From NCBI GenBank assembly GCA_051362555.1, contig CM120647.1:16468651-16532650 (forward strand): DNA of 64,000 nucleotides, written 5' to 3'. Position 1 is the first letter of the stretch; every line of letters begins with the position of its first letter. The translations under genes were made by a program, and so were the position numbers. Source of the DNA: Lingula anatina (lineage: Eukaryota > Animalia > Brachiopoda). Below the pieces are notes generated by a model that saw only the letters and a program-made list of their open reading frames with translations, was not told the origin of the DNA and did no database searches. Positions 22,244-56,602 of the stretch are shown here, one piece after another.

Positions 22244-22284
<41 letters not shown>

Positions 22285-24701: not shown

Positions 24702-27700
24702 ATGGAGACTGACGAAGAAAAGCTCCTAGCCAAGGAGGTGAGTGAACTGAATACTTGTCACCAAAGTTGTCAGGTAGTGATCAAAAACCGTGGAGCTATA
24801 TGAGATGATATAGTAGAAGTATGCAACTGTTATAAATATTGTCATCATAAATTGTATCATAAATTGTGTGCTGGCTATTCACTAGGACCAAAGAGGGTCT
24901 ATATAATCATTAACAAACGCAGCGTCATGTATGTTTACTTTATCGAAAGCACTAACAGATCCAAAGTTTGACCTGGGGGTGGGGGTGGGGGGTGGGGTGG
25001 GAGATCGAAGGGGCACAGGGGTTTTTAGGACAATTATTGGGGGAAAGGGGGGCACACGGGAAATATGCACTAAAATGCTTATTCTAAATTTATAATTCAC
25101 AGAAGTAATGCTCAGTTTTTGAGCCCTTATATTTTGTTCTCACAATCTAATAATTTTTTTAAATGGTTGAATTTTAAGATTAAAATCTTTATACAGAGTC
25201 AGATGATTTTTATTAGTTTATTTGTGTGCTTAAAGTGGATAAATGGATTTTGTAGAACTTTAGGTTATGAAATAGGCCTATTACTATAAGTTGTAGGCCC
25301 TAGGCCTGGAGACATTTCAAGAGGGACACGCTTTCGGCAATATTATGGTAAATCCATAAGCTTCGGTAATAGGCCTACGTCTTTCGCCCCTTTCCCCCCT
25401 CGGCTACGACCTACAGTATCTCTACCTCACAATCAACCAAACACGACAAACCAAGCAATTTGCCACTCCCATACATATTACAGTAAAATTGCCCGCGTCT
25501 GCTATTTTTTTACCAAACGCGGAAAAATATTTTATTCTTGCCCCCCTTCCCCCTTCAGCATATTCCTGGATATGCTAGGCAGAATGTAACCCATTTTTTG
25601 TCTGGCTGAAGAATAACATCTGAAGATAGGTACCGTATCTAGGGACTGCTACACTGGTGGGTACCTACGGTGCGCCTGTAGCGTTTTGGAATTTATTTTT
25701 TTCTGTGACCTGAGCCTGACCTCGCTACTGAGAGCCTATCTGACCACCGAGTCATTAATGCAGTTTATCTCTAGGCTGAGGCCCATTAAACAACTTTCCT
25801 GGGTTAAGATCTAGGGTATCAGCTCACACATATAAGTCTATTGCTTATATTTATTTAGCTATTCATCTGTTACCTATTAAACAGTACTTTATTTGTATCC
25901 AGTGTTTTTATCACGTGACGGCTGATAATTCGGTCACATTTAGTTGATGATTTATCTTTCAAAAGTATGCAAAAGTTAGTGTAGCACTGACTAACTCCTT
26001 TTTTTATCTGTAAACCCCTGTATTGTTTGTGATTTATCCTCAAATCGATTATATATTAAAAGTTCTATCAAATCTAGATATGATATAATATGACTCAGTG
26101 GCGATATTGGGTATATATTATCTATGGGGTTAGGCGATATCCATTACAAAATCAAAAACAATATAAAAAGAAATCAATATAGGAAAAAAGCGTTTGCCGA
26201 AGTTATATTAGATTAGATTTTATGACTACTTTCTACACACAAATAATAATAATAATGATAATAATAATAATAATAATAATAATAGTAGTAGTAGTATAAG
26301 TAATATGACTGCATTTTTATTATTGTGAATTTCAGAAAAATACGGTGGTAAAATCGACATATAAATATAAACTCGGGGTGATATTTGCCTGTCTCGGCAC
26401 TGTGGTTGGCACAGGAAATATATGGAGGTTTCCCAGGATTCTCGCCACCAATAGTGACACAAAAGGTAAAACAACTTGCCTCTCTTTCATTTATTCCATT
26501 CATTCGTTCTTTCTTTCTTAATTTCTTTCTCTCTCTGTCTCTCTTTTTCTTTTCTAATTCTTTCTTTCCCTCCATTTCTTCGTCTCTCCGGTCAATTCTT
26601 TTGTCCCTTCCTTCTCTCTTTTCTTCCTTCTCCTCCTTCCCCTCCTTTCCTTATTTCTGTCGTTTCTATCTTTCAACTCTATATTGCTTTGCTTTGCATA
26701 TTCATATAATACCAATATCATCTTGAAAAAAATGAAATAGCTAAGGAAGCATAAACATATAGTCACAGTGCACCAAAGTCGCAAGTTAAGTGAGAAATCA
26801 TTAATCATTTTTATTCTCTAAATACGAATACAAATGATCTGATTTCTATATTTCCAGGTGGTCTGGTATTTCTGATAGTATGGCTTTTCTTCCTCTTCTT
26901 CTGGTCCATTCCTATGTTGCTAACCGAGTATTCCATCGGACGATACACGCGAAAAGCCACCATCCAGGCATTTAGACATTTCCATGGCGACAAGGCCACG
27001 TGGGCTGGCGCGTGGGTTACCTTGGTTTCATTCTTCATTTCGTACGTGAGCATTTTATACAAGGATTAAGGCATGAAACAGTTAAGGCACGGGAAAGCAA
27101 TTTGTTTTGGGGGTTCCAAACGAATTCCAATGTGATTTTGTGTTTTATGAACGGATCTGTTTCAGTGGCATTCACTTAAGTTTTGTTGAAGTCGTCCATT
27201 CCTCACCTCTACTCAGATCACCATTATCATGTTGCTTCTGTAATATGTAATAGCATATGTGGTCTTAATGCATAACAGCGTGTGTTATTTGATTTTGAAG
27301 GTGCATAGTGTATATCTCTCTATACATCTCTTCTTATCTTATACTTATTTTGCAATACGCATTTGATGGTACCTGTTGTATTTCATATACGCTGGTAATA
27401 TAAGGGCGTTATGTGCTTAATTTGCACGTATTGACCTTAGTTTTTGCTTACAGTTGCTATTATTCAGTGGTCGTTGGATGGTGCTTTTATTATTTCGGGT
27501 TTGCTATCGGCAACCCTCTTCCTGAAAACAACGAAGAAGGAAAGAAAATATTTGACGATTTTGTGGTGGTGAGTGTCCTCCTGCAAATTATATCTTCCTT
27601 AGATATGCTGTAATTGTAAGATGAAAAAAGGGTATCAACTTATCTTTATATTTTGCTTTTACAGTTTATCACGTTTGAATTTGCAACATTCCTTGTCATG

Positions 27701-28877
27701 TATTATGCCCTTCTCTCAGATATAGCCTGTTACTACGATATCATTTTTTTCACATTGGATAAAATTTCGGGATGAAAGTTACGATAATGATTTCTTCAAA
27801 ACAACAAAGCTAAAATCGAAGTTATTTACCGTATCCCCGGAGGAAGATGATTTGATAGACCAGTCATTGCCAAAAACTTTTCAACCTTTTGGTTTTCTGT
27901 GGGCTCTTATGAACGATAATACAGAAAGTTGTTTCACCTAAAGTAAAAAGCGAACGTTTAAATACGTCTTATTTTCCACACTGACTTTATAATTATATGA
28001 TCGATAGCATTTTTAATGGATATATTTACCAGTTTTCTTAAAGTATTTTGATATCCCATGTTTTTTGTATTATGAACTCGGAACTTCACTCTCTTGGTTG
28101 CTATTTCAGAATAAATTAAAAAAATTAATGTTTGTGCATTTTTGTATATAATATGTTCATTTTAACCAGTTTTCTGTAAGTTTTTTTATATCCTTAGCTT
28201 TCTATCGAAGTTATTTACCGTATCCCCGGAGGAAGATGATTTGATAGACCAGTCATTGCCAAAAACTTTTCAACCTTTTGGTTTTCTGTGGGCTCTTATG
28301 AACGATAATACAGAAAGTTGTTTCACCTAAAGTAAAAAGCGAACGTTTAAATACGTCTTATTTTCCACACTGACTTTATAATTATATGATCGATAGCATT
28401 TTTAATGGATATATTTACCAGTTTTCTTAAAGTATTTTGATATCCCATGTTTTTTGTATTATGAACTCGGAACTTCACTCTCTTGGTTGCTATTTCAGAA
28501 TAAATTAAAAAAATTAATGTTTGTGCATTTTTGTATATAATATGTTCATTTTAACCAGTTTTCTGTAAGTTTTTTTATATCCTTAGCTTTCTATATTACA
28601 AACGCAATACTTAACCCTCTTGGTTGCTATTTTAGAATAAACCATCATTAATTTTATAAATACTTTCCAGCATAGCAGTTGGCCCATACTGTTTCACGCT
28701 GCGGCCATTTTGTGCGCGGGTGTGGCTACATACAAAGGTGTTAAAACCATAGAGAGGGCCTGTATGGTCATGGTACCCACGCTTCTGGTCATTGTCATAT
28801 TCACATTTATCTGGTCACTCACAAGGAAATGGTCTAATATTGGGCTGACCTATATGTTCACGCCAAGTTGGGGTAAG

Positions 28878-28916
<39 letters not shown>

Positions 28917-31900
28917 GATTTAAAGGCATTTTCTAAAAATATCACAAAATCATTGTATAAACTTGTCTAGTAAAACTTGAAGAACCAAATTTTCATCGCA
29001 AGGTTTAACCGTTTACTTGCTTCTTTAGTGTGCACTCTGTTGAAATATTGACCGAAGTCACGTCATATGTTACACTGTTTGTCCCGAGTGAATATATGAC
29101 CCAAGATCTGGTGCCCGAAGGCGATGGGCCAAAGGCAATAGATCTGTAAAACAAACATTCCAAATTACGTTTTGAATTACCCAATCATAGATGAGAGACA
29201 TATAATGAACGTGACATGAAAATATAATAAACAAAATATATAGAGAACAAAATATTCATTTAATGTATCCCTCTGTTTAGAATCATTCGGAGACCCACGT
29301 CTTTGGGTGGACGCTGTAAGTCAAAATGCGTTTGACACGGGTGCTGGGATGGGTCTTATCATCCCGTATGCGGCCTACATGACCTCCAATCACGGTATCG
29401 TTAGATATGGGACCCTGATACCAGCCACCAATAACATGGTCAGGTCGGTGACTCTCTAAGAGGTTTGACCTCGGATTTTTTAAAAATAATTCAATTATTT
29501 GGGATGCAGATTTAAGAATAACAAATCTTGACAAACGGGGGGAAATTGTAAATGTCACTGCTTTGTAAAAATGTCAAAATATCTAATTATTATTACTATT
29601 TTTTTCATATTATTATTATTATTAAATATATATTTTTTATTTTCATGCTCAATATGGACGTTTTAGATCTCATTTTATTTGCATCTTAACAAACCAATGG
29701 CTTGTAATTTCAGTCTAATCTGCGGGATGACAATCATATCCACTGCCTTCTCGTCCCTAGTTGCACTTCAGCCAACCATCACCCAAGAAGATGTCGTCAA
29801 CATTTTAAAAGATAGTGGACCAGGAAGCACGGGGGTTACTTTTATTTGGTATCTACTTAAAGGCGTATAAGGAGCTTTCGACGTTCATGTAGTAAAATAG
29901 TTTTCCTGGAAATTTCAACTTTTCACTTAAAAACGATATGCCATCTACAGAACCGTTCAAAGAATCTGATACTTCTGCAATATAGCAATTTTTGTTGCCT
30001 CAACTATAATATGATATAAATGGTTGGTTTTAAAATGGAAACTCATTCAAATTATTAAGAATACAAAAAAGCTTAAAACAGCTTTGCATCGTTTTTTACC
30101 GTGATATGTAGATGGGCATTTCCAATCTGGGGAAAAGGAACTTGACGTTTTTCCTATTTTTCATGTAAAACATCAACTTTGTTTGGTGGAGGAACGAAAC
30201 ATCACACCTCGTAAATGAATATAAAAAAGTTTCTTTAAAATTGGCTTTCTTCTTTTCTGACTTTATAAAAAAAACGGTGAAAACCCAAGTCCCACCATAA
30301 TTCCAATCTGATTCTTGATTTCCTAGGGTCCCGGTGTTGTTCCAGGCTGCGGGGGACGAGTTTGGGCGCGTGCTTTGCGTTCTCTTCTTTTTGTGCCTGT
30401 CATTTGCTGGATTGTCGTCTTTAATATCCAACGTTGAACTTCTTGCGCAAACCATGGAGGATTTTGGACGTACGTTAAAGACTGTCTTAGACATGTGTAT
30501 GGCAAAACATTTTATCGTAATATTTTTGAGATCGCCATGAAAACATTTCATTGTTGTTTAGAAAAAAAAAACACGTTTCTAAAACGGTTCATGATTTTTT
30601 TTCCATTAATTACCTCAGGAAGTTGTGTTTATATTGCATCTCACTGATTTTCCAGTAACCACATTATTTAAGTAATATTCTAAAATTTTAATTTAGTTTT
30701 AAGTTATTTAGATGTTGCACTAACCATTTTCTCATCTTACTACCTTCAGTTAAGAGGAAATTCGGCAGTCCCATATCGCTATTGTTGGTATTTCTTATCG
30801 GGCTTCCGTCGGCTTTTAGTCTTGATTTTCTATCAAACCAGGCAAGTGAGAGCTTCTTAAGAATTTCGTCGTTTTATCTCAGTAGGCTTATTAAGTGAGG
30901 TGTGCCCACATGTCAGTTGTGTGACAACAGTTCAAATAGTATTATTTTATGATTTTTGGCACTTAAGGGATAATAATGGACGAATTAGGATAATTTCTGA
31001 CTAACACAGCCAAAAAAAATCAAAGCCTGTTATCTTTTTGCATTTAATTTTTTTTCAATTTATTTCTGTACTGGTACATAGATTGTCATGACCTTGTACA
31101 ATTTGATATACTAATGATGATACAATACAGTTAGTGCATTACCATCTTTATATAATGGACATACGTATCAGTAAAATTACTCATAAAATATTCTATCTAA
31201 GCAATGCGATAAACCTTGGTGTGATTTTAAATTTACCATAAACATACTATAAACATGTTACACAAAAAGAATATGTTTAAACTTAAAACCAAGGTTACAT
31301 AGCTGTTTAAGGCCAGTTTGATGACATGGATAATTACGACTAATGACAATTACATAAGACAGATAAGTAAATAAGTGACACAGATATAAATATTGTGCCA
31401 TGTTCAGTCCCACTGCCGAGTCACTTCTCACAACAGTGGGACCATACACTGACATTTTAAGGGATATGCTAAGAGTTACCAAGCAGAGCAACCACTTCAC
31501 TTCTTTTCTTGAATGATTTGATTATAAAGTTGGAGAGGGACACTAGAGTATCTTTTTTGGCACTGTTAAATACATGGCATAAATGACTGTCTGGTGACCT
31601 GGGATCAGCTTTTAGGATTGAGGTTTTACTTAAAAAAGTGACTCGGTCTGTTTTGTACATTGGGCATTGGAATATAAAATGGTATTCATCTTCAATTACC
31701 CCTTGGGTGCACAGGCGACAGATTCTGTCGCACCTTTCAGTTTTTGGCCTGGTGTGCCGCCCAGTTTCGATGTGGAGTTTATGGTCACTAAGACGTAGTT
31801 TAGCAAGGGTTGACAAGGTGTCATAATTTGTTATTTTATCAACATAAGTTGCCCTTTCACACTTTTGGTTAAGTATACGGAAGAGAGACAATTTACTGTT

Positions 31901-35566: not shown

Positions 35567-38500
35567 CTAGAAGATGTCAACATCATCAGGGGCATCCAAG
35601 TCTCTGTACTCTATGATACTCCTGGATTCTCTGGATCTAAAATATAATAAGTGGTAATTGTTTAGAAGTGTGGTAATTACATGTATCTTGTATATGAATA
35701 CTGTAAATTGACCTACAAAAATGATACAAAATACAACAGTGATTTAAAAATTTAACATTTTAAATAATAAGACCTGTATAAATTAAAATCTATAGTTCTT
35801 TTATTAAACAGCGATTAAAAAATTTAACATTTTAAATAATAAGACCTGTATAAATTAAAATATATAATTCTTTTATTAATGTATTTGAAGTCATCAGAAT
35901 AAAAGAAGAAGAAAAAAAACTAATGTTTGATACCATTAGAGATTAAAATAGAAGTTAAAAATGTTGATATCTGGTTGCTAAAAAGTCTGCAAATAATCTT
36001 ATGTGACGCCAATTTGATGTAAGGGTGGAGAAGGGTAGGAGGGGGTCCAAAATTCTGACAGGCAATTACTCTTCATAAAATAACACTCAGTATCCGACAC
36101 AAAAAAGTGCATTCATATGGTTCTATTCCAAGCCAAACAAGTGCTATTTTGGGGGAAAATTATACCACCTATAATTACAAATAAATTAATGCCATGCAAG
36201 CACCTATATTTTGTAACAAATTGCTGAACACATTTAAAGAAGCTTGAATTCTACAAAATTGCTTTTTCACTTGTTTATAAGCTGTGGCACTGTTGCTTGG
36301 GTCACTTTTCCTCCTGTGGTGGTCTACCTAACTACCACACGTAATTATGAATATTACAGCATTAACATCAACACATCTAACAATGTCCTGCATGGTCCAC
36401 TCATATTCAACATAACCATTAAACTAATTGATTTTGTGTTTCAGCACATACATTTCTATATAGAAAGAGGTTCCCAGTCAAATTTACAAATGTTTATATG
36501 AAGCTCCCTTGTTTCTGGGTTTCCATATCTCATTTTCATGGTGTAGCTGATGATGGTACATGAGCTGACTAAACATTGCTTCACAAACATTAAACTAAGT
36601 TCTACACTTTGTAAACTTTTAAGTAGTCCTCCTATATGGTAACAATTGTTGCAACTGATTTGGGTAATTAACAGTTTTAAGAAGTCAAATGTCCCTCAAT
36701 TTAGCAAAGTAAGATGGTAATATGTAGTTATATGGCTTTATGAATGCAAATTGAATGTGTTGCCCCATTCCAGAAATTGCCATTTATAATTCTAAAATAT
36801 CCATTTTGCCAATTTTCAAGATAAATTCTACTGGACTCTCATAAAACTATGAGCATTTATACAATTTTAATAATATTGTTATTATCATTAATCCTTCTGC
36901 TTTAAATCCACTTAGTCTTTCAATTGATACATTTTGTATGAACTAAATTAAAGTACACTTTTCATTCTTTTGGATACACTAAATATGCAAAATCAAAACC
37001 TTTTCATCTCTTACAAAAATCTAAAACTTTTATCATAATGCATGCCCCTTTTCACCAACCTTGTTGTCATAATATTCATCTAAGACAAGACTTAATTCAG
37101 ATATTTATTTTCTGAGTGCCATGTTAGGTGCCTCTATCAAAATAAATAAATAAATAAACATGTAAAACTTTGGCTGTTAATACGCACACTTAACACAATC
37201 AATCCAAGTATTAGCTAAGCTTTTTCTATATACCATATAACAGGAGAAAACACAAAAATCAAATAAAATTAAAAAAAAAAAAAAAATACACGATTAAATA
37301 AAAATCAAATAAAATTTAAAAAAAAAAATAATAACATTGGTATAATACTGGGGGTAGAACAAGGCCAGCTTTACCTTGACAGTCCCACTTGTCGATCATT
37401 GGGTCTACAAGATAATATTTTTTTTTAAATAAGTGTCACATATTCGCACAATGAAACATTACACTAACAAGGGTCCCTCGCACAAACTACTTTTGTTTGA
37501 GACCAGTGGAAAAAAATCAGGAGACATATTAATATTTGTAAAAGGGAACTTAAAAAAATGTCATAACTCCCCCTCCATCCATCCCATACAGCCACTGTCC
37601 TCTCCACACCCCCCCCCCCCCCCCCCCCCCCCCCCAACTGGGAACTCGATATCACCTCATCAATTTTTCCTCCCAAATATACCACAATAGACAGTCGTAA
37701 ACAAAATCAGCTCAGCCATTTTTAAAATGACTCCTGGGATTCCTCATTTCCTTCAGTTAATCAAGCTGCCAAAGATTTTATATATGCAAAGAATAAAACA
37801 TTTTAACCAATCAAACTTACCTAGAATAGTTGCTGCGCCCCTGAGGTCTATCTCCCAGTCTGAAAAATACCAAGATTACAGATATATACATCAGCACCTC
37901 AAAAACAGAACTTTCAATAAAATTATATTTTTACTCAAATTTTTTGCAAGTTTTACTCACTTACCACTTAAAATTAAACTGAATATTGCAAATATATAAA
38001 TATTTCCCATGCTGGCTCCAAAAACTAAAACACGTGACATCTGGTAAGTCTCTTCCTTTTCTCCATTCATCAATATGAAGTGACCTTAACCTCACCTTGA
38101 CCTTGCTGATAACTGAGGTCTCCTGTAAGGATCCTGTCTGTATGGCTCCTCTCTCCTCCCTCCATAGTTAGGGGACTGATACTGGGGCGGGGGACCTCCT
38201 GAAGATAAATAAGCAAAATTATTATTTCAATACAGAAGGGCATTTTACTACAGGACTATAGATTGGTATCAGTTACCACAAACAGCAGCTACAGTAGCAT
38301 CATTGGACATCTTTAAAAACACAGAAACTTAAGAACTGAATCTATGTTCTCTCTCTCTGTCTCTCACAACAATTCCAGTATTACCACAACTAGAGATATA
38401 AAACCTGAGACATTTATTTATTTGGGTATAACTTTCACATAATTTTCCCTTAGAAGACATTATTTGTTTCCTAAAAAACAAACTATTAGCTGGGTAAAAG

Positions 38501-41500
38501 CAGTCTGTATATACCATTCTGACGAAAAAAAAAAAAAAAAAAGGAATCTGCAAAAAAAAAAAAAAAAAAATCTAAGCGAGCACAAGAAAACATTTAAGTC
38601 TTTTGCTGATAGTATCATGCAAGTTATAAAAGTGAAAACGAAATATATAAAAGAAAATGCACATGATAGCACAAAGGTCTATGTGTTAAAGTTCTGGAAC
38701 CTCAGACAAAACACCTCAACATCCAGATTTTCAGATTAATCCAGAAGAGGTTCATCTCTTGTCATAACACTGGGGGTGGGGGGAGGGGATGTCACCAAAT
38801 CCAAAACTTACGATCACGTCCTTTACCTTGGTATCCCATCATGGGGGGTCTGGGCTGATTGTAGGCCATGACCCCCTGCTGAGGTGGCCCATACCCGCCC
38901 CCTGGTGGCATGTTGTAGTTGTCACGCCCTGGGGGCATCGGCATGCCGCCCTGACGATTGGCGGGATGTTCCGGTAGCTGGGGACGCTTGGTGTCCAGAA
39001 GATAGTTGTTGAAGAATGCAACCTATGAATCAAGACAAGTTGAAGAATGCAGTCAATAATTCAAGCAGAGTTGAACAGTACAAACTTTTAATTAACAAGA
39101 GTTAACAAATACAATCTTTAAATTAAGAAGTAGAAAAATACAGCCTTTTAATAAAAGAGCTGAAGAATAAACCTTCAATTCTGAAAGGTTTTTATTTGCT
39201 TCTTTGAAAAAACTTTTAAAGGTTTTCCCTTTTTCTTCTTTTTCAACAACTAAATCTCTCAAAATACTTCTCTCACGAAAAAATTAAATTTGTTTTTCTT
39301 TTTCCGTCTCTTTTCTAACCTCTTGTTTTACTTCATCAATCTTCTCCCCATGTTTGTTTAGGATATGTTTCCGTACAAATTCGGGGCCTTTAAATTTCTT
39401 CCCACTCAATGGACATAACCACTTGTCCTTTCCAAGCTCCTGAGTGTTGGCGTTCACAAATTTTTCCACCTCTGTGACAATTGTTAAGGTTATTTAGTCT
39501 CTCTTTTTTAACTTTTGGTTATTTAAATGTTTAGTATAAAAGTAGGAAAGAACTTGGAGAGTGCTAGTGTGATGAAACCGAGGGTCCCTGGAGTAGAGGG
39601 TCCACCCTCCACCTTAGGGTAAGCCTCACCTAAATGGGTCAAAATCTAAGACAAGGCTTACTGTCCAAATGAATGGGAACTGGACTCTCTATCATGGGGG
39701 ACTCTTTGTCACATTACACTGGCCTCACCAAGGTATATCAATTCTCATTATTATTTACACAATACATTACGGAACACCCTAATCTAATGGATTTTAAGTT
39801 AAACTTTTATCTGAATTTGAATATTATTATTATTCAAAATCATTTTTAGGTCTGGCTTACGAAGACAAGTCATTTTGCAAGATGTGAAGACAGGGATACA
39901 TATGTTTCTGGGCATTTACAATTTCGTGCAGAAAGTCAAAAAATATTTTGCAAAAAAATTGTACTAATCTGAAGTTTATATTTTAATTGGAGGGTGACAC
40001 TACTGCCAGTTTATCTTTCTAAATATTTTACTGACATCAGTTGAATGGAATTTTTTTTTTTCTTACAGTGTCTGCAAAACAAGTTGAAATCGATGCAGGC
40101 CCATTACATAAAGTGTTAATTACTTCCGACAAAATTTGCACACCTAACCCTTTGACATTCATTAACTTAATATGTTAAAGAAATTATGAAATATATGAAT
40201 TCATTCCGGAAGTTCACAGTCAGGTTAGACCATGGCAGGAAGCTAACGAGACAGTGTTTCCAGACAGTGTAAAACAACCCAGACAAAATTTCCAACATTT
40301 CTTGAAGTCTTTCAAAACTGTATTCACTAGGTGTAACAATCTATGCAATAGTTGTAAGATCTGACTGATCAAAATAAAAACAGACAATTGCAGTGTCAAT
40401 GTCTGACAATTACAATGTATGTAAATAAATAAATATATAAATAAATATTTTTGAGTTCCATTTTAAAAGTGTAAACAAAGCACAACTCCAGGCACCAATG
40501 TTACCAGAACAGTGACACAAACAAACACCACTTTTACTCAAATCAGTGACAAACAACTCTTGGCATTAGGACAATAATCTCCATTCCTCATCCCTCCACC
40601 TTATCCATATCACTGTTTTCCATCAGGACCAAGGGACTGGCAAAATTTTAATGACACTCCTGATTGCAATCAAGGGTTGTCCATCCAGGGTTACCTGTAC
40701 CTAGGTAAACAATAGGTGACACTCTTAATTGCAGTATTAAGCTGGTTACCTGGGCTGGGTGTACCACACCTATCTGTGCAAAACTCAGGTGAGCAATTAT
40801 AGTCACTCTTGATTGCAATCAAGACAATTTACCTAGGCTACCTGGCTACAGGTAAACAATACCTGATCCCCCTCTTAACTGGATGGGTGAACTTTTTACC
40901 TGGAACTTGTTAACAACTAAGTTAGGTGCTAATCAACTGTGTCGCAAACACTCCTGCCAACTTTGTATTAAAATCCAATCAACCAATCACTGGTAACAGT
41001 CCAAAGTCAACTTGACAGGGTGGCCAATCATAGGTGTGGAGACAAAGTGGCAGCTGGCAGGTTGTTGGCATGTTATAAAAGGGGAAGCCCCATGGCATGT
41101 GTGACATTTCTGGTGTCAACCTGCCAGCCTCAAGTGTCAGCCTCTGTGTCAGGAACCAAGAAGTTATTGTTGTGGAATCAAGATACACTGCCATCAAGTA
41201 CAAGGTGCCAGCAGTGCCAGTCTCAACTGCTAAGAAGTGTCAATTGCCAAAAATAGTGTCAACTTCCCCAAATGGAGAGCAAGCTGAAGACACCTGTTTG
41301 TGACAACTCAGAGGTATGTACGATGTTACAGTGTCACATCTCCAGTTCAGGGATGAGACTTCTTGGCTACCAAAATTTCGGAAATCCACTGTTGGAAATA
41401 TCCAATTAGTTGGAAATCCATAGAAAGTTGAAAAAAGTCATCTTTGCCAGTGACAGTTGTATCATATCATCATCTATGTCTTATGGTTTTTCATAGAGCT

Positions 41501-44500
41501 GCCCCTTAAATAAACTATTACATGATCGTTATTTCAACTTGAAGCAAAACAATTTTATGAAAACATCTGATATAAATACTTTTGGTTAATAGTACAATAG
41601 AGAGTCACTGCGATTCAAATTCTGTTGTCTCTTCTAGATCATGTTCATTTTCATACAAAAAATATTTTCTGAAAGACAGTAATAGTAGATGTGGGTTTTT
41701 TCATGCTCATTCAAAAATAATTTTTCAAATCAAAGCAGCCATAGTTGCCCTTAATGAAAAAAAATAGACCCAGTATCCTTATTCATTAACAAGTCACAGC
41801 GGGTCTCACTTTCTGTTACTTCCTTTTCCAAGTAATCAAAACCTATTGTATTCAATTTGCACCTATGACTGTAAACCGCAAAGAAGTTATTTTTGTGCAT
41901 AATGTATTCCCAGCTCATATATTAATGCATCCTTTCACCTCATTCTTCCAGGTTACATCGGACCATGCGCCAGGTCTCTATTCCTGCCGTCAAACAGATT
42001 CCTCCATGACGCCTAGTTCACCAAGCACCGAGCAGTCCGTCGGGCATTTCTCTTATCCGTCACTTACCCGAGAGGCACCAGGAGTAAGCGTAGGCACTGG
42101 GGCAGACTACATGGCTTTATACAACTTGCTGCAACAAGAGTGTTACTCCACCAACATGCCCTCCAGCCTTCTCTGCAGCCTCCCCCGTCCGACACAAGTC
42201 CCCATCAAAACACGAGCGTCGTTTCTAGAGCTGCAGTTCATGCGTCTCCAGTTCAAAGCCAGGGATCAGGTGAGAGACTTACGCAGTGTGTATCTGGATC
42301 AACGACATCAGCTGGATGGGGAACGTCGTCAGGCTCTAGCATCCGTCACCAGTGCCGGCTCCGACCCTGTTAAACAAGCTATCAATCATCATTACGATAC
42401 GATTGAATACCAGCTGGTGGAGCGTGTGCAGAAGAGTCTACAGCTTCTAGAACAGTTCGTCTCTCAGAGGACAGACACGGAACACTCAAATCTTCTGACT
42501 GTCACTTGTGACGCAGACTTTGCACGCAGCTACGAAAGCCCCATTTCACCTGAAGCGCCATCTATACCAGAGACCTACAAAGCACCTGTTCCGAACAATC
42601 GTGAAAATTGCGACAATTTTACAAGTCCCATGACCACATCTCCTCCATCTTGTGGTAGCACAGTCGTGTCCTCCACAGTCACACTGACTCAGCGGAAACC
42701 CAAAGGAAAATGTCGTCCAGCTCCATACGTTCCACGCCCAAGTAACCAAAGCTTTTTCACAAGCCCACTTCGAAAATGGCTGTCTGAGAATGGATACAAC
42801 CTATTTCCTAGTCACAAGGTTATTATGGAACTGTCTGTCACGACGGGCCTGACTGTCACTCAAGTTACACGGTGGTTTGAGAACCAGAGGGCAAGACTTG
42901 CTAAAAGGGCAGCAAACTTATCATGAACTTGTCACAATCTAGAACTGTTCGTATGATCACAACTTTACAGTTGCCAAACAAACCTCATACTTCTCTTGAA
43001 CTGAAACTGTATGTACTATCAGAATACAAGACTGCCTAAGACACTTCATTCTAATCATGAACTAGGACTGTTTGTAGTCAGAATGTGATATTTTACTTGC
43101 CAAATAACAACCTCTGTTAATAGCCATAGAACCCCTTACAAAGTAAATGGTGTACTTCAAAAGAATATTAAATGTAAACTTGTGACTAATTATGTTAATA
43201 TTGTAAATATTTTTGTATCAGTGTGTGCAAAATTGGAACTATCTGTACATTTATCTGCCTAAGCATGTAAAATGAATCTTGTTCAGAGGTTTGATTTCAG
43301 TAATAATACTGTTATACAATGTTTCATTTCAAAATCTCATACTGTGTCAATCTTAATGGTAGTTAGTCTTTTCTCCAGAAAGTTTGTCAAATGTACAACT
43401 GGTTGCATAACATTTCACTTATCATTGTGACTAATTATTTATTCTATGGTATTTACATCTGAGGTCTCATGTCTGCCAAATGTTGCATGCACATCTTGTT
43501 TAATTGTTTCTATGTTACAGTAATAAAACAAAATATCATCAAATGCCTTTTTTCTTGGTGCACATTCTATACCCAATACTTGATGATAAGTATTTGTACT
43601 TGCAGTTATTTAGTAGACTTATAGAGAGTTTTCTCAGTCAAAAAACTATATCCCTACTGGTCACTTTCTGAATTTTCAACACCAGGAGAAGTCACATGTC
43701 CATATGTGACTTAATAGTTTATGGAAAGTGGAATTAACTTGATTCTAGGATGAGACTAACATCTTAAGATAATTCACAAATGAGCTTTTAGATGCCAGTC
43801 AACATTCAATTAGCATTCTTGAACTACAATAACTATGATAAGCTATCTGTGCAGAGCACAAAGAACCCCGTTACATCCTTTCATATCACCTACTTCAGGT
43901 TGAAATAATCCAAAATATTGTTTAAATAATTCTGTGACAACAACATGTTAACATGGATGAAAGTTGTAGAAACTGTAAAGCCTGATGATATAACTTGCAA
44001 TTTCTCATTGGATTTAGACCACTTCAAAAATGAAAAAAAAAAAATCAAAATGAGGGCTGAAAATCATGAAATCAGGCATCATCCTAAAAACTCTCACCCA
44101 TGTTTAGTACAACACAGCAAAACATATACATCAGGGTCTTTCTTTGTTTCCCTGCCTCTTTGAGAGGAGTTCACAATTCCTAATATGACATCTGTCTAAA
44201 ACTTTTCTGACCCAAGTAAAGTAGTAAAGAGTAAAGGATATATATCTGGGTCTTTCTTTCCCAGTTTCCCTGCCTCCTCCTCCTCTAGCTGTCCTTTCAT
44301 CTCCAACAGGTGCTTGATTTTCTGCTCAAAGTTGTTCACCCACTCACTGACTGGAAAAAGCAGTTGACACTCAGTGAATCAAATGCATTGAAAATGATTG
44401 GCAGGTAAATCAACTTAGATAATATTAACAGTGAATAAATCACCTGCAATGAAGATCAGCATACAGTAAATGGACTGCAAATTGATAAGCAGTTGACTGA

Positions 44501-45568
44501 CAAAATAGTTGAAGAATGGCTTGTCTTGCACTCAGTGACATCTATTTTGCTGCTCCTTATTGTAAATGATAACAGTGACCATTCTCCCTTTCACAACGAT
44601 TTCACAATGCAACTTTAGTCCAAAATGCATTAAGCAGAGAGCTGGATGAATAAAAACAAAATTAATAAAAAAAAAGTTTGGATCAAGAGTCTGCTGCATT
44701 GCACTTACTATTTTAGAGACCAAGCACACATTAGATAAAAGAAATTAAATGTGCAAGATTAAATAAGATATCCATCTCTACTTACTGTCAGACTGAGTCA
44801 GCTTATTAATGGGGATAGCTGCGCGTGCATGCATGATCCCACAACGATGTGGCATCTCATCTTCCTGAGGATATTCTGCACCGCTGTAGTAGTCAACAGA
44901 GAACACAATACGCAGGTAGAGTATCATCTTGTCCAGTACCTAAAGTATGCAGTTAAAGGATCAGGAAAGAAAAAAAAAATAGAAAAAAACTATTTTTTTT
45001 AATTTTGTTTACAAAATTTTGTTTGCAATAAGTCACTTTATCATTTCAACAGTATATTTTAGCCTAAGTTACCAAGTAAAATTATCTCAAAATGTTTATG
45101 TTGAAGATCATCTGAATATTTTTGCCATTGCAATTTAACGCTGAATAAACATGCTCAAGCTTCAGATCTAATAAACCTGCAGCAGCAGTCAACTCAGTTT
45201 GCAAGGGGACTTCATCAACTAACTAATGACCTGCTTTGCTGCTTCAGAAGTAAAAAGATTTTTTTCAGCCAAGAAGGCAAAGCTTTCCCCGGCAAACTGA
45301 CCTTCATCACTTTTTCATCTCTCTCTGGAGTGATCTCCCCGTTCTGGCCATCTTTCTTCTCCTCCAGTGCCTCCTCTCCCAGTAACTCCTCCTCCTCGTA
45401 ACTCCCCTCCTCTACCAAGTAGTCTGTTATGTTCTTCAACACTGGGTTTTTGGATACTAACCCAAAACTCTGAAAACCATGAGACATTCTTTATAAAGAG
45501 CTTTATACAGAGTGGACTTCTGTAATAAAAAAAATCCTGAAAATATAAATGCAGCTCTATATGGGAGT

Positions 45569-45618
<50 letters not shown>

Positions 45619-48600
45619 GGGGGGCGGGGGGGGGGGGGGATGGGGGGTACAAATACAACACCCAAGTAATAACCTGTTGCAAAAAAGAGCTTCAGATCCC
45701 TAAAACTGCTCTGAACATTAAGACCACAAATCTGGAATTTCTAGATAAATCCACAGTGGTCCAATTAAATGCAATGTTTTCTCTTTTTTTTTCAAAACAA
45801 GAAAGACCAGGCTTGGACTAACCTGACGGCAAATAACTGAGAATGGGGAACAGATTAGGTGAACCTTAAAAAGAAAAATACAATATGTGAAATTCACAAT
45901 TTTTCCCCATTGTTAAAGATTGAGTTATTACGATACCTCTTTCTCTTTGTCTCCCTTCTCGTCTCCGTCCTCCCAGAGCCCCCACTTCCTGTCCAGGACC
46001 TGGATGATCTTGGCGGTGTTTTTGATATCTTGTCTCATTATTGCGCGATGACACGTGATGCCGTTGATTGGGCGGATACGCTGCTTAATGTCGCGATTCA
46101 CTATAGCACCCATTTCACAGTCACGGAGCTGTAAGAAAAAAAATTCAACTTGGTCTGAACTTCCTCAAGATATTTAATAAGATGACACTTTTATCTAAAC
46201 AAATTTGGAAATTGTTGTAGATCTATTATTTTCAAATATATCTGACATGAAGTAAAACAAACAATGCATCCCCATCTCTGTTTCTCCCAAGAAATTACTA
46301 AAAAAAATTTTTGTTTAATGAAAAAAGGAAAAATTTGCATTTTTGTAGCCAAATTAAATCATCTTTTATGCATGGCAAAAATCTCTCAATTCCTGGCAGA
46401 GTAAAGAACTATCTTCCCCTTACCCTTATATTATTAAGATTCCAGCAGATATCCTTAATGTTGACATTGCGTTCAAATGTCACCCAGCCCCTCCTGAACC
46501 AGCGCCTCTCTGGCTGTGGGTCTTGAAGCGCCACTCTCATAAACCCTGGGTAACGCTTGCACATCTGGAAGAAGTAAGGGGACAGTATAGAGGTCACAGG
46601 TACTGCTTTTATTATTACTAATTGTGAGGGCTGATAATTTGTTCACAGGTTGTGTTTTGATCCTTGTGCAATGCTTGCACATGATGCATATCTGAAAGGA
46701 AGGGATATGCAGAGCAGCTCTCTTGCCGTCTCTCTCTTGCTCTATCGCGTGCGCACGCACACACACACACACACACACACACGGATATGTATATAACTAT
46801 GATCTTGTTTATTTATTTGTAGAAATTATAAAAAGTTAACCACTCACTGCTTCAACTTCCTGCTTGGTAATTGTAGGGGCCAGATTTCTCAGGAATATTG
46901 ACAGAGTTTGGTGCAGAGGTCTAGGTCTGGTGTCTGCCTCTTCTTTCTCTTCTCCTTCTTCAACCCCAGATTCTGAGACTGGGTTAAAAAATCAAAAACT
47001 GTTTAAATTGCACATCATCAACATCATCACCATCGTTACAATTTATACCAACAGTCCAATCTAGCAGACACCACTTTGAGTGAAAAGGACCATAGCCACA
47101 GATATCAGTTATTCATAAATGCAAGGAGTCCAGAATTTTCTTTCAAAATTGCATTATTGTACATAAAATATAGATAATATAAAAACCCTGCCCACCTCCT
47201 TTCTCCTCTCCCTGTTTCTCCTCTTTGGTGTCCGTCCCAGGGGCCTGCTCTCCTGTCCCTGGGGGTGCTGGTTCATCATCAACCCCAGGGGGCGCTGGCT
47301 CTGACTCAGAGTCAGATCCACTCTCAGATTCTGAGCCACTTTCGTAGCTGTATTCCGTCTTGTCACGATGGCGTTTCTTTTTCTTGTCCCTCTTCTCACT
47401 CTGGAGGAAGGAAAGACTGGCGCATTGTAACAATTCTTAATTTGAAAGCATTTCTAAGATTTGTGGTATTCGTTTTTTTTTTGTCAAAGATGCTTTATTA
47501 ATGATTTAACAAACATTTTGTTTTATTTCTCAGACAAGATACTGTCATGTTGAATTTAATTGTGCCTGAAAAGGTATTCATATCATGATGCTTCATTTTG
47601 ATTTGTGAAACATTATCATGGCTGTACAATAATAATGCTAAACAAGTATTTTTCCAAAATGGTTTTTCTTTATTACCTCCCCTTCTTCCTTGTCCTTCTG
47701 CTTGGAGAATTCCTCAGCCTTTTTCTGTAATTCTTCTTGTTCTGGATTTATATTTAGTTTAACAGGTTCCTGCTTTATTAAAGAAAAAATAAAAACAGTA
47801 TACATCAGACCTGTATGCTACTCATAGATAATACCAGAAAAACAACTTGACATTACTAGAAATTTTGTAAAAAAATTTTCCAAAGCAAAGATTTTTTTCC
47901 ATCAAATATATATCAAAACATAGTACAGGGAGGAACAAAATATTTTGATCAAAAATAAAAAGCAAACTTACGTTATCTGACTTTTGGCGATCTTCCCTTC
48001 TGCTGCTATCATCAGATGCCCTGTTTTTAAAAGTTCAAGGTCATTTAAAGGTCAAGATCATACTAAGGTTACAATATAGACAACTTAGTGTATAAACAAA
48101 GATGCTTTAAAAGATAACCTTAGTTAAACAAGTTTTTAAACTAAATTCTTTTTACCTGCCCCTATACTACTTCAGCAATGCATTCAGGGAATGGTGCAGA
48201 ATCCTCCTTGCCTAACCGACAAACTCAACTATACCCACCATATTTAGTGTCCAAACCCACTTGTACCCACCCTTTATCTGGTGTCTGTGACTCTGAGTTA
48301 GGTCTGCTTCTCCTTCCCTCCTCCAGTTTCTCTGCAGGCATCTCCAGTACCTTGAGGTCCTGCTCATTGCCTCCTTCCAGCAGTATTATGGCTGTAATAT
48401 TGAATTGTGTTAGGTGAGACACAAGGAATTGGCTGTGAAAATTGTGATAGCTGTGATAACTGAATATACAATTGTGTATTTAATACAGTGGAAATTTCCC
48501 AAATTATAATACCCCTACCCCAGTGAAGACACAACTCACCTGCATCCAACAACTTCACCAAATTATCCGTCTTCTCGATATCCACGCTACAACTGTCCAC

Positions 48601-51574
48601 CTTGCCCATCTCCATCAGCTGTGTAAAAACTCTCGCGCGAAACTTCAGCGCCCCCATCATCTCCTCGCGCCTCTTGTCGCACTCCTCGGGGTGGTACTTG
48701 GCCTTGAACCTTCAAAGACAACCAGAGAGAGCCACTGATGAGTTTATAAGGGTGAGGGACACTATTAAATGGTGGTCACATCTGTGTACACAGACATAGT
48801 GAACAATTTTTGGACTGGCAGAAACCACCTGTTTACCAACAATTTTTTTTAATCATGCAATACTTAAGTTAAACAATTTCTAGTAAATGCCAATTATTAA
48901 TTCAAAATCCCTCTCAATCTTTTCTTTCCTTTTTCTTCAAGTCATTTCACAAACTTCTGAATATCTGTATTTTATGGAACAACATCACTTGCTTTATTTC
49001 ATCACTTTAAACTTGGAGTCAAAATTGCTAAAGCAGTGAAATTTTACACACAATTCACATATTTCAACAAAAAAAAAATCGTTCTCCAGTAGTAACCATG
49101 ATGCACTTATGCAGATGCACTGTCACCCATCCAAACCTTACTATCTTACCATACCTACGTCCAGTCCTCCATCGAAGCAGCGTTATAAAACTCCACGCGA
49201 TTTAAATGATTTGACCTATTTATCTACCTAACACTTTGGCAGCTACTGCATTAAAAGCATGCAGAAGGATGATTGCTAGCTAGCTAAGGTACAAATAAAC
49301 GCGAGTCTTGGCAATCCAACGAAGAGCTTGTCTTTGGCGAAGGTCTTTGGCGCGAAATATTTACGAAGGTATAAAATTTCTTGCCATTTCTTTGTCGTGG
49401 ATGAGCTGGTGGGTGAAGAAATTTGGATTAGACACTCATGGGACAAGAAGACAGCTTTTAAGACAGAAAATCAGGGTAGCATGCTTATGTACCGTATCTG
49501 AAATTTCTATCAGAATTATTAAATGATAATTTTTCAGCATCTTGTAATTGAAGAATAGAAAATTTTCACCATTTTGTTATGGAATTTGCATATTGACAAA
49601 TTCAGTTACTATAAAGTTACTAATGTAAAAAGACAGATGAATTTATTCAAAATCCTCAAAGATAATATCAAAATTTATTTGTTAAAAGAGAAGTATAATG
49701 GATATGAAAGGCTACCACACAAACATCTGCCATCAAGCTGTCTCACTGTACCCCTGACATCAATTTATATAAGGAACGCAAAATTACTGATAAAATTGTG
49801 AAAATTCAACAATTATTTTAGGAGCACTTTGGACATAAATATACAAGAAAAATGTATATAAATATCTATAATATCTGTGAATAATAAAAAAAATTATTGA
49901 AAAATAAATTATTTGAGAAATTGAAATAAAGGGGCACTAAGCCCCTCTCCCCCCCCCCCAAAAAAATTTTTTTTTAACATTTGAATTTTGTATAATCCTT
50001 GATTATGCATTTCGTATTTTTGCTTATGCAAACATAAACTAAACAAGATTTCACAACTACTACATGCAACATATAACTCCATGATAAAAAAAAGATAAAA
50101 AAAACAACAACACATTATTTAAAAATTTCCCAAACTAATTCCACCTACCACTCTTCCTCTTTATGTTGAAGGAAGAAATCATTGATCTGCTGACGAGAGA
50201 AATCAATTTTATATTCGTTGTATTTTTTCACAGCATCCTGGTCACTAATGGTGTCGTCTTGCTGACCTAGAAATTGCTTGAAGGTCATCATGGGAGGCTG
50301 GGTCGGAAAGTCCGGCTCCTGACCTCTGGAAGTAGAATAATGACCATTGATCATTTATAATAATAATAATACTTAATAATAATACTTCATTACAAAATGC
50401 AACCCATTTGGTTGAAGTTTTCCATGAGAGACATATATTCTTTTCAATGGACACCGTTTTCTGTTCAGTCAATGTCTTTTTCTTACCAAAGTATTATCTG
50501 AAACTATTCTAGCACCCTTAAAGCATGACTAAATATTAGCCAGAGTTTCCAGACTTCATGGCCCCAGGTATGAATCCAGGCAGTAGTTACCTATGACCTG
50601 GATAATGTTGCTGTGGAGGGGGCATATCACCAGGTCCTGGACCCCAGCCATGGGGCGGGCCCGGGGGTCCTCCCCCACCCCCACCTCCTCCTCCGCCACC
50701 TCCATAAGGCATGTCATAGCCATAGGGGGCATCGTCCCTGAAAATAGACAGACATGTAATGTTTGAGGGTTCTTTAAATGAGAAAAACAAAGTTATCAAC
50801 TGATGACACAAGCAACAAGTGAAGGCATTGCAGACAGTTATCAGATATACATCCAAACTTACATTAGAGTGTTATAATATCAGCTGGTGACAGAAAATTT
50901 ACAAAATAATTGATATTGATATTTCATAGCCTGTTGACAAAGCCATTACTTGTTGCCTCAAACCTTGTCATCATTCTCAAAGTATAAAATACCCACCAAT
51001 CTCTTCTCATCCTCTTCATGGGGGGGCTGACATCATGACGGGAAGGGGAGTATCGATCCCGTCTTCCGCGCTCATAATCCCTGTACATATCTCGACTTCT
51101 CTCACGATTTCTGCTGCTCCAACTGTCTCTGTTCCTGTGGATTGTAAAACAAGGTATGGAGATAATCAGGGATGAGACTGTCTTTTAGTAAAAGAAGTCT
51201 GAAAAATTTGGCATGTTTCTTTTTTTTTAAATAAAGTTCACTTGAATGAAAACATCAAAGGACCAGAAAACTTGTCTTTACAGGGATTTGACGGCCATTT
51301 AGCATAAATATGGCATGGGGCCCAGGGTGCCTCTTTTACCAAGGGTACTTCTGGCTCCCAAAAAGTCGGAAAAGCACCGACAGTTGAAAAATCTCCTTGA
51401 TATCCCTGCAAATTAAGACACCCCCAAAGCCTGAGCTCATAGAAACCCTGCTCACCTAGAGTCATCCCATGGCTCTCTCCTCCTTTCCTCCCTCCTTCCT
51501 GCATAATCATCTCTTTCACGGCGAAATTTATCACGACCACGTCTTCTGTCGTATTCTTCATCACTGTCTCCCAT
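35567..51574 (-). CDS. SRRT: Serrate RNA effector molecule homologue (Ars2); 21 coding exons, ~901 aa
   Basis: Exons (5' to 3' on minus): 51456-51574, 50997-51134, 50591-50737, 50149-50325, 48540-48709, 48271-48391, 47972-48020, 47677-47769, 47196-47400, 46848-46978, 46424-46564, 45937-46128, 45302-45469, 44786-44939, 44242-44350, 39320-39473, 38827-39022, 38096-38198, 37821-37859, 37375-37404, 35567-35636. All phases are consistent and the total is 2706 nt. Hallmarks are the N-terminus [47 protein letters not shown], the zinc finger [24 protein letters not shown] and the C-terminus [16 protein letters not shown]. Confidence 0.96.
35741..35880. repeat. ~72-bp AT-rich direct repeat, 2 copies, in the last Ars2 intron
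   Basis: AAAATTTAACATTTT(T)AAATAATAAGACCTGTATAAATTAAAAT.TATA.TTCTTTTATTAA occurs twice. Confidence 0.85.
39520..39735 (-). mobile_element. Degenerate SINE-like remnant near the 3' end of the U12 intron
   Basis: GAAACCGAGGGTCCCTGGAGTAGAGGGTCCAC resembles the GAAACCGGAGTACCCGGAG..AACCCAC core of invertebrate tRNA-SINEs. An A-box-like GGTGAGGCCAGTG lies on the minus strand at the right end. Confidence 0.4.
40970..41085 (+). promoter_or_regulatory. Core promoter of the nested homeobox gene (three CCAAT boxes and TATA)
   Basis: CCAATC occurs at ~40976, ~40983 and ~41024. TATAAAA is at 41074-41080, about 200 nt upstream of the ATG at 41272. Confidence 0.65.
41272..42926 (+). CDS. Divergent TALE-class homeobox protein (spiralian SPILE/PADRE-like); 2 exons, ~338 aa, nested antisense in Ars2
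   Basis: Exon 1 is 41272-41313 ([14 protein letters not shown]|GTATGT). Exon 2 is 41952-42926, in frame after TTCTTCCAG. The C-terminal segment [43 protein letters not shown] aligns without gaps to the TALE pattern LRAWLxxHxxHPYPSxxxKxxLAxxTGLTxxQVxNWFxNxRRR. A central helical block ([34 protein letters not shown]) resembles the PADRE domain as I recall it. AATAAA is at 43522. Confidence 0.85.
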
Positions 51575-54500: not shown

Positions 54501-56435
54501 TCTCAAACGCGTTCTCAAACGCGGCTTCTTGTAGCCTACATCATGAACTTCAACGTCCATGATCGAGGACTGGGGTTACGTGGGATGAAATACGAATTAT
54601 CCGTGACAATGTTGAAAGTTTCCATCTAATCTTCCATTGTGAACGAAACTAGGGGCGCCGGTTTAAACAAAATTTAAAAACACGATTAGACGTTGTAGTT
54701 ATCAGGGCGCTCTCGTGGGTCCTAGCAAAATACCTTTTGCATAAAAATACGGTATACTTTAGAAAGTTTACATTAAATGATCGATTTAAAACGAACATAT
54801 TGCTGGTCGTTAGAATAAAGTCTGCGTCGTCAATAATATTTCCTTTCTCTTTAGCTAAAAGTCCATAGATTGGTGCCACAGATCTTGTACTTAAATTGAG
54901 CTGTAGCTAACTCCGTATGTTCTGCATTTCATCAAAATGTGCTATCTTCTCGGTGGGATTATCAAAGAGAACCTTTTTATTTTTTTTTACAAAAGCCTCT
55001 ATTGCTTTTAACAAGCACACATTTTGTCTTTTCATGCCTTCCTTTCCTTTTCTGCGCCCTTGCTTCTCAAGACTGTTCATGTGTTCATACAGTACCCGGG
55101 GCAAGTCCGCGGTCGTCATTTGAACGAGTAAAGACTACTCAATACTAAAACCGCCCAGGTGTGAACAGCTGTGGACCTCGTCGCACTGTATATCGTCAAA
55201 GGCGAAAGCAAACGTTATCTCAGTGCAAAACAAAATAAAAATAAATAAGTAACTGAAGTCATCTAACTAGGAACGTTCCGAGCAGGCCTATCAATGAAAG
55301 CCAACGAACTTGAATTGAATCAGTAGCTTTTCCGGTATAACAGCACGTCATACCACCTGTTAACCGTGTTCAGCAGAAGAATGTTATCTTCTCGGTGGAA
55401 TTATTTGCAAAATATGTTTTATTCAAAATTTCCATCTCTGGTACCGTGGTTCGAGACCCACCAAGTATAGTACCGTATATATTTTTCCAAAATTATGCAA
55501 CGCAAAGTCACGAGTTCGAGTCCCGGATGAGGCACGTCAGTCCATCACGACAACGACCGAGCAACTGAATCGGGACCCGGAAGTCACGAGAACGAATCAG
55601 GGCTCTCGTGGGTCCTAGCAAATTTCCTTTTGTAGTCCATCCTCTATTGCTTTTAACAAGCACACATTTTGTCTTCTCATGCCCCTCCTTTCCTTTCTTG
55701 CGCCCTTGCTTCTCAAGACTGTTCATGTGTTCATACAGTACCCGGGGCAAGTCTGCAGTCGTCATTTGAAAGAGTAAAGACTACTCAATACTAAAACCGC
55801 CCAGGTGTGAACAGCTGTGGACCTCATCGCACTGTATATCGTCAAAGGCGACAGCAAACGTTATCTCAGTGCAAAACAAAATAAAAATAAAAGTGTATCT
55901 GAAGTCATCTAACTAGGAACGTCCCTAGCAGGACTATCAATGAAAGCCAACGAACTTGAATTGAATCAGTAGCTTTTCCGGTATAACAGCACGTCATACC
56001 ACCTGTTAACCGAGTTCAGCAGAAAAATGTTATCTTCTCGGTGGAATTATTTGCAAAATATGTTTTATTCAAAATTTCCATCGCTGTAATTGCTTATATG
56101 GAAATTGCACCAGTTATCAAACATTTGAATGTTTTTCCCCTCTCTTCTTAAGATCTCGCAAAAACTAAAGCACTCCAGTTGTGAACCGCCTTTGATCCTA
56201 TTGTACTTTTTAATATCTTGGGTAAAACCCAAATCAATCTTAACATAAAACAATCTTCTACCTCCGTGTCGGGTTCTGAAACACGCATGGGTTCCTGTAC
56301 ATCATAAATTTTACCGTTCGTGATATATGCGGCACCTGGTTTATCGATTGGGATAGCAGATACACACGTTCATCCAAGCTGGCCCTCTCCGTGGCAAGGT
56401 TGAAAGTTCCCATCCGATCATTACGTATCAACGAA

Positions 56436-56532: not shown

Positions 56533-56602
56533 CCAAAATTAAATTTTGAATATTCCGTTTGGTTACTATAAGAGGAAACTCGTAAGTACGGAGGGTGGGC
56601 GG

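Follow-up and report, generated by a model that had tools for sequence, protein, structure and literature searches.

How does an intact homeobox gene come to lie inside a minor-class intron of another gene, and does its host respond to its presence? The question is raised by a 64,000-nucleotide (nt) stretch of the genome of the brachiopod Lingula anatina (contig CM120647.1, positions 16,468,651 to 16,532,650 of the forward strand), referred to below as the window. Here the gene for the RNA-processing factor ARS2 (Ars2/SRRT) runs along the minus strand, and its intron 15, which carries the signals of a U12-type AT-AC intron, holds on the opposite strand a gene for a divergent TALE homeodomain protein. 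The initial annotation of the locus proposed that the nested gene could be coupled to its host: its transcription would interfere with the intron, or its RNA would pair to it, and ARS2 dosage would follow. The evidence assembled below points instead to a lineage-restricted duplicate that settled antisense in an old AT-AC intron and is probably tolerated there as a passenger, not as a regulator of ARS2. Judged by reading frames, junctions and protein matches, both gene structures are real: the homeobox gene is intact and lies antisense inside Ars2 intron 15 (Table 1).

The AT-AC Intron of Ars2

In a hand-built exon model of Ars2, exons 1–19 supply 866 codons that read without a stop through the AT-AC junction, and the stop is carried by exon 20 (35636–35567, minus strand). 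The 18 introns other than intron 15 are all GT-AG. Intron 15 had been described as by far the longest intron in the coding region, and it is: its 4768 nt compare with about 2.18 kb for intron 19, 1439 nt for intron 4 and 148–628 nt for the other 16.

The full minor-spliceosome signature attributed to this intron is likewise present. The donor, ATATCCTTT, conforms to the U12 5′ splice site criterion ATATCCTT and occurs twice in the whole window when both strands are searched. The acceptor end is devoid of a polypyrimidine tract and places CCTTAAC near the terminal AC, as the U12 type requires. The exons flanking the intron match positions 14–49 and 51–101 of the Pfam ARS2 profile, with exactly one split codon between them. 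The AT-AC junction restores the frame and reproduces the spacing from a conserved lysine to EVEKF, which is constant in all site-spanning proteins among 120 fetched ARS2 orthologues, mostly from fish; no other junction does so. Two of the 120 proteins run into intron sequence that resembles a branch point. Alternatives of other classes were tried. A search out to 60 nt from the two ends finds no GT-AG pair that keeps the frame, and five GC-AG pairs were rejected, each of them deleting at least 12 residues, conserved ones included. On these signals Ars2 intron 15 is a U12-type AT-AC intron.

Related loci show that the intron is not peculiar to Lingula. A metagenome scan gave 297 candidate Ars2 loci, of which 174 were confirmed; the analysis covers the best 80 of these, in which exon 15 was placed with tblastn and the intron ends were inspected. 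A complete AT-AC intron occupies the identical phase-2 site in 35 of the 80 (24 clusters at 97% and seven at 85% exon identity), with lengths of 209–1558 nt and a median of 485. At 16 loci the acceptor is seen (AC in 15, AG in one) and the upstream exon falls outside the contig; these partial introns reach 3.0 kb. Three loci (L032, L041 and L053) have a GT-AG intron of 59–86 nt at the U12 site, likely the product of U12-to-U2 conversion, and two (L074 and L075) have a shifted boundary, with the acceptor 15 nt upstream. The other 24 are intronless at the site; 20 of them have no next intron either and could be transcripts, and four resemble genomic losses. A FastTree phylogeny was calculated from 46 rows (the window, 40 loci and five reference proteins; 42 loci had been picked, and two with fewer than 80 residues were dropped). 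In it the window and all 17 included AT-AC loci form one group (0.989), apart from the fish and GT-AG loci.

Because the intron is shared at the same site by 35 of the 80 loci and is GT-AG or absent at others, this comparison indicates that it is old and real and has been lost or converted elsewhere. SRRT/Ars2 gives no match in human and mouse minor-intron tables (eight supplement files of PMC6717393), in which the control Ssu72 was found. What emerges is an old U12 AT-AC intron of Ars2 that a group of invertebrates has kept; elsewhere it is a GT-AG intron at that site or has disappeared, and the human and mouse lists do not contain it. It shares with U12 AT-AC introns generally the consensus donor, the branch point 8 nt ahead of the terminal AC and a position conserved among animals. 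It differs in Lingula in being three times as long as the longest complete orthologue, in housing a protein-coding gene and in its absence from those two lists. A pan-eukaryotic survey reports a relative abundance of minor introns in Lingula (PMC10639083). The largely open-access literature that was searched mentions no Ars2 minor intron, no position for the nested gene and no U12 intron that houses a coding gene; intron databases may list the Ars2 intron already.

The donor end of the intron has a further feature. A decayed copy of the end of exon 15 and its donor lies 114–118 nt into the intron, and CC has been lost from the copied donor. It is possibly a scar at the edge of the intron's expansion. 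A GT within the copy was considered as the donor of a twintron and rejected, as it sits beyond an in-frame stop. An Rfam scan gives no match inside intron 15, and no DNA similarity at E 1e-3 connects the intron with any of the 80 Ars2 loci.

Structure of the Nested Gene

The initial annotation placed on the other strand of intron 15 a promoter, two exons, a 3′ untranslated region (UTR) and a poly(A) signal. This description stands, with a coding junction that agrees with RefSeq and with predicted promoter and ends. The Lingula anatina protein XP_013395155.2 (LOC106162408, 338 residues) is 98% identical to the predicted product and is its only close match among 1184 candidates. It starts with the 14 residues of exon 1, joined to exon 2 exactly at the predicted junction. 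Six of the 324 exon-2 residues differ from the RefSeq protein, none of them in residues 98–184 and three in the homeodomain, and these differences are compatible with the 1.6% heterozygosity of Lingula (PMC4595640). With its ends placed by prediction, the whole unit spans about 40650–43545, or some 2.9 kb, and lies within 39474–44241.

Upstream of the gene, CAGGTA occurs six times in 300 nt against a maximum of three in 40 simulated windows, a contrast to be read in the light of the post hoc choice of the motif and of six other hexamers that also reach six somewhere in the window. The CAGGTA(A) cluster stands beside TGATTGCAATCA palindromes and resembles the early-zygotic CAGGTA elements of flies. 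A second hexamer, GTGTCA, is found six times between 41113 and 41336, always on the plus strand, in the 5′ UTR and the start of the intron of the nested gene; these are six of 43 in the window. Its reverse complement resembles the TGACA site of TALE proteins, and the repeats could be DNA or RNA elements.

The Nested Protein and Its Relatives

The call of a TALE homeobox gene is upheld by a Homeobox_KN match above the cutoff, by the loop extension and by a three-helix model. The three-residue TALE extension is evident from the alignment with TGIF1, which is gapless across the loop; TGIF1 and Meis are the best sequence matches in the PDB. AlphaFold2 predicts a three-helix homeodomain with a predicted local distance difference test score (pLDDT) of 86–97, together with a confident helical hairpin for a second, upstream domain. 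The homeodomain model superimposes on Meis2 with Z 9.8 and a root-mean-square deviation of 1.4 over 55 aligned residues.

The upstream domain is PADRE, a companion of about 87 residues in lophotrochozoan TALE genes (PMC5322547). A PADRE profile constructed from the relatives in a 59-row alignment, with two Lingula rows left out, matches the nested protein at E 1.5e-22 over model positions 1–83 of 85. The profile set includes P0098, which matches oyster TALE13 in its printed N-terminus and a literal PADRE motif (PMC6118893 supplement). The sequence allows a finer placement than plain TALE: by its domains, the nested gene belongs with the PADRE-bearing TALE genes of spiralians.

Within this family the homeodomain is an outlier, scoring 31.8 bits against a median of 88.6. 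It keeps Trp48, Phe49, Asn51, Arg53 and Arg55, and has lost several family-invariant features: the tyrosine after the helix-1 tryptophan, the PYP loop, the lysine before WF, and Ala or Ser at position 50. Residue 50 is alanine in 66 and serine in 12 of 81 PADRE-positive proteins; glutamate is seen in the nested gene only.

The closest relative among 1.84 billion representatives is XP_013413649.1 of Lingula, with its 99% twin XP_013411077.1, at 35–37% identity; this is a two-homeodomain protein, 35% identical over 303 columns. The Lingula trio groups with a Shimodaira–Hasegawa-like likelihood-ratio (SH-aLRT) support of 99 on a stem of 1.06 changes per column. The quick tree of PADRE-TALE proteins (74 rows, 139 columns) has no canonical TALE outgroup and a long branch for the nested gene, and gives firm support for the trio only. 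The Lingula loci LOC106175991 and LOC106174190 (P0003 and P0152) encode 494-residue proteins that differ at five positions and combine PADRE with two divergent homeodomains, the first of which has Arg50. They are not in the 2018 TALE table and may be alleles or recent paralogues.

That survey lists four non-canonical Lingula TALE genes (TALE-I, III, XIII and XVIII), whose homeodomains differ from the nested one (PMC6118893). The nested accession and motifs have no match in its supplement, and the nested gene is uncatalogued in the published Lingula TALE survey. A likeness of PADRE to the PBC domain of PBX is unsupported: no Pfam family matches exon-2 residues 70–178 at E up to 10, and PBC is not among the 25 of 60 families listed for the PADRE alignment. 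Fold searches with PADRE return generic helical hairpins only, a result still compatible with a PBC link.

PADRE is found in most clades of SPILE genes, whose zygotic members start at the 4–16-cell stage in mussel and limpet (PMC8524836), and expression of the PADRE-TALE family is early embryonic in oyster and mussel (PMC5322547, PMC8524836). The SPILE genes, which include oyster TALE9–13 (TALE-VI), limpet SPILE-A, -C and -D and the two-homeodomain TALE-IV/SPILE-B, have a PADRE domain of about 85 residues upstream of a TALE homeodomain, as does the nested gene (PMC5322547, PMC6118893, PMC8524836). The nested gene differs in its far more divergent homeodomain, with Glu50 in place of what is mostly Ala or Ser, and in its animal, which is described as radially cleaving. 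An uncatalogued, fast-evolving PADRE-TALE pair in a spiralian so described, one member of which has Glu50, bears on the role of "spiral-cleavage" genes after spiral cleavage has been lost.

A Probable Late-Arriving Passenger

Comparison of orthologous introns bears directly on the idea of a conserved coupling, and goes against it. The U12 intron is shared by 35 of the 80 loci, and in them it is short and guest-free. A tblastn search with 155 homeobox queries, 143 of which match the window, finds nothing in the 80 Ars2 loci, and most of the complete orthologous introns are too short for a unit of about 2.9 kb. Since the intron is shared without the guest, the intron predates the guest.

These observations favor arrival of the guest as a duplicate in an intron that was already there. 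It would have moved as DNA and not by retroposition, because it keeps an intron and its upstream motif cluster and promoter; there are no convincing terminal repeats around it. For U11/U12 the two ends of the intron would suffice for its removal, and the splice and poly(A) signals of the guest, lying in the opposite orientation, would be hidden from the Ars2 transcript. The guest would be transcribed from a TATA promoter of its own, probably as a brief pulse early in embryogenesis, as in its mollusc relatives, and would encode a transcription factor with altered DNA contacts owing to Glu50. Any clash with Ars2 transcription would be brief and not under selection.

Such an arrangement would not be unusual in kind. 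Young, fast-evolving and narrowly expressed antisense guests in conserved, broadly expressed hosts are the usual pattern in Drosophila and mammals, mostly with no correlation of expression (PMC3814207, PMC11694760). About 10% of fly genes are nested, and OMG, EVI2A and EVI2B lie in NF1 (PMC4394429). The Lingula gene resembles the opposite-strand nested genes of these accounts in being a young, fast-evolving duplicate on the other strand of a conserved host (PMC3814207, PMC11694760, PMC4394429). It differs from the surveyed cases in the U12 type of the host intron and in having a developmental transcription factor as the guest.

Several points weigh against a harmless and late arrival. At about 10 times the orthologous median, the length of intron 15 might by itself retard splicing, and nested transcription can alter the processing of a host, as at H13/Mcts2 (PMC13309782). 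The timing is loosely bounded. None of the 80 loci was identified as brachiopod or phoronid, so the nesting is dated only to after the split of Lingula from the sampled animals; its age within the brachiopod/phoronid branch is unbounded, and the long stem of the Lingula clade allows an old origin. The locus set is the best 80 of 174 confirmed, and in 16 of them the intron is seen only in part. The nesting itself is observed in one assembly, and a Lingula Ars2 RefSeq protein was not found among the best 120 of 1677 matches, nor in one of three candidates.

Is the Guest Coupled to ARS2?

Geometry makes pairing of guest RNA to the splice signals unlikely. Between the end of the nested unit and the U12 donor lie 696 nt, and between the acceptor and the start of the unit 1631 nt; on these distances, masking of the signals by mature antisense RNA of the guest was rejected. 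Nor do the poly(A) signals of the Ars2 strand speak for coupling. Their raw density looked low (four in 4768 nt against 23 in 8568 nt), and in the non-coding intron the count of AATAAA and ATTAAA, four against 5.9 expected from dinucleotide shuffles (P 0.27), is ordinary. Because the count matches the shuffles, neither purging nor enrichment is claimed. With an intron that predates the guest, a predicted RNA that misses the splice signals and poly(A) signals that are unshifted, coupling to ARS2 dosage appears to be without support. Head-on interference with transcription of Ars2 in early embryos is possible on this geometry. In the initial annotation, the words "rate-limiting" for the intron and "embryonic" for the guest are carried over from other systems.

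It is conceivable, though unlikely, that such interference occurs incidentally and without selection, or that the guest hitch-hikes on the expression of its host. The open chromatin of a housekeeping gene active in oocytes and early embryos would then have aided the survival of the duplicate, which would briefly but measurably dent Ars2 output. Hosts are typically broadly expressed and conserved, and co-expression of a guest can change host isoforms (PMC3814207, PMC11694760), which would suit this explanation, as would the presence of a separate motif cluster for the guest, no more than about 450 nt from its TATA box. Against it, the sister genes of the guest persist on other records.

A stronger form of interference seems rather doubtful. 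According to this proposal, a burst of guest transcription in cleavage embryos collides head-on with Ars2 transcription in a slowly spliced intron, causes retention of the intron or cleavage near 43443–43504, and tunes the dose of ARS2. Read-through would meet a stop 12 codons into the intron, with a predicted truncated ARS2 that lacks exon 16 onward. The geometry would permit this: the genes are convergent, two signals of the Ars2 strand lie 18–80 nt away from the poly(A) signal of the guest, and beyond that signal the U12 donor follows at about 700 nt, a distance over which a terminating polymerase could keep running. Precedents exist for intronic polyadenylation driven by interference, at H13/Mcts2 (PMC13309782), and for premature cleavage in a minor intron, that of PTEN, and the level of Srrt matters in mouse embryonic stem cells (PMC6969169). 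The parallel with H13/Mcts2, in which activity of a nested promoter drives intronic polyadenylation of the host, is the model for this proposal (PMC13309782). It is nevertheless inexact, since Mcts2 is a same-strand, imprinted mammalian retrogene with a demonstrated effect, whereas the Lingula guest is antisense, bears an intron and is known here from its sequence alone. Other evidence is adverse. The arrangement is conserved at none of the 80 loci, and the poly(A) signal count is at the level of chance. Self-feedback through intron 15 is not expected because Srrt exerts its anti-termination role on first introns, via the cap-binding complex and U1 (PMC6969169). Neutral processes may explain much of the evolution of minor introns, and no gain in the efficiency of minor splicing was seen in proliferating fungal cells (PMC10639083).

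The boldest version of coupling is quite improbable. A brachiopod-specific PADRE-TALE factor with Glu50 would fire at cleavage stages within the Ars2 minor intron, stall or truncate Ars2, and lower full-length ARS2 in the same blastomeres, so that a U12 intron would serve as the basis of a cell-type switch. If coupling were true, it would constitute a link in cis between blastomere fate genes and a core RNA-processing factor. The Ars2 locus is in any case a natural test of minor introns as rate-limiting switches, with relatives that keep the intron short and empty.

Two remaining readings are highly improbable: that the guest is decaying or has ceased to bind DNA, as a young pseudogene or a competitor acting through PADRE only, and that the nesting is an assembly artefact. 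The low homeodomain score, the loss of family-invariant residues and the three of six RefSeq differences that fall in the homeodomain would fit decay. Against these readings, the frame is open in two sequences, the residues at positions 48, 49, 51, 53 and 55 are retained in a model with a Meis2-like fold, and nothing is missing from the promoter, the intron or the poly(A) signal. The window is free of Ns, and around the guest the two ends of the U12 intron are intact.

Feature Coordinates and Neighboring Sequences

Table 1. Positions of the host gene, its AT-AC intron and the nested homeobox gene, numbered from the first letter of the window.
Feature	Position	Strand	Basis
Coding span of the host gene Ars2/SRRT (20 coding exons)	35567..51574	-	Hand-built exon model; Pfam SERRATE_Ars2_N and ARS2
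Ars2 coding exon 15, phase 2 split codon at end	44242..44350	-	Pfam match and exon model
U12-type AT-AC intron 15 of Ars2, 4768 nt, phase 2	39474..44241	-	Splice signals; shared with 35 of the 80 related loci
U12 5′ splice site ATATCCTTT	44233..44241	-	Read from sequence; 35 of 35 complete orthologous introns begin ATATCCT
Decayed tandem copy of exon-15 end and donor, donor degraded to ATATGTTT	44092..44165	-	Repeat families D2 and D8; 71 nt at 76%, E 8e-8
AATAAA (43443) and ATTAAA (43504) facing the nested 3′ end; candidate intronic poly(A) sites of Ars2	43438..43504	-	Count no more than chance
U12 branch point CCTTAAC (39489-39483), 7 nt, terminal AC (39475-39474)	39474..39489	-	Sequence
Ars2 coding exon 16	39320..39473	-	Pfam ARS2 positions 51-101, E 1.5e-28
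Motif cluster upstream of nested gene, putative enhancer	40648..40924	+	CAGGTA six times in 300 nt, with recurrent TGATTGCAATCA palindromes
Putative core promoter: three CCAAT boxes and TATAAAA (41074-41080)	40975..41080	+	Sequence; function predicted
Nested exon 1: predicted 5′ UTR with no upstream ATG, ATG at 41272, 14 codons	41105..41313	+	Matches XP_013395155.2 N-terminus; start site predicted from TATA box
Nested GT-AG intron, 638 nt, phase 0	41314..41951	+	Junction agrees with RefSeq protein
Nested exon 2, coding part, 324 codons and stop (stop 42926)	41952..42926	+	Open frame; RefSeq match
PADRE domain, residues 98-182, predicted helical hairpin	42201..42455	+	Profile E 1.5e-22; pLDDT 88-98 over residues 101-190
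Divergent TALE homeodomain, LFP replacing PYP, Glu50 at 42879-42881	42723..42911	+	Pfam Homeobox_KN 33.7 bits against cutoff 24
Predicted 3′ UTR with AATAAA at 43522	42927..43545	+	Cleavage site predicted

Three further observations concern Ars2. Exon 16 contains the zinc-finger-like motif WLCPLSG...HILNKH. Tandem repeats of 31 nt (39008–39130) occupy the acceptor end of intron 16 and partly copy the start of exon 17. Intron 10 (46696–46861, minus strand) gives an Rfam match to SCARNA7 below threshold (31.5 bits against a cutoff of 65), probably driven by GT repeats.

Just upstream of Ars2, from about 54700 to 64000, lies a tandem array of units of about 1.42 kb, 92–99% identical, that runs off the end of the window; two open frames in it have no Pfam match. 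On the other side, at about 17300–31000 on the plus strand, are at least two tandem multi-exon genes with a GTGNxWRFP motif. By this motif the genes resemble those of sodium:neurotransmitter symporter (SLC6) transporters; the one piece scanned has no Pfam match.

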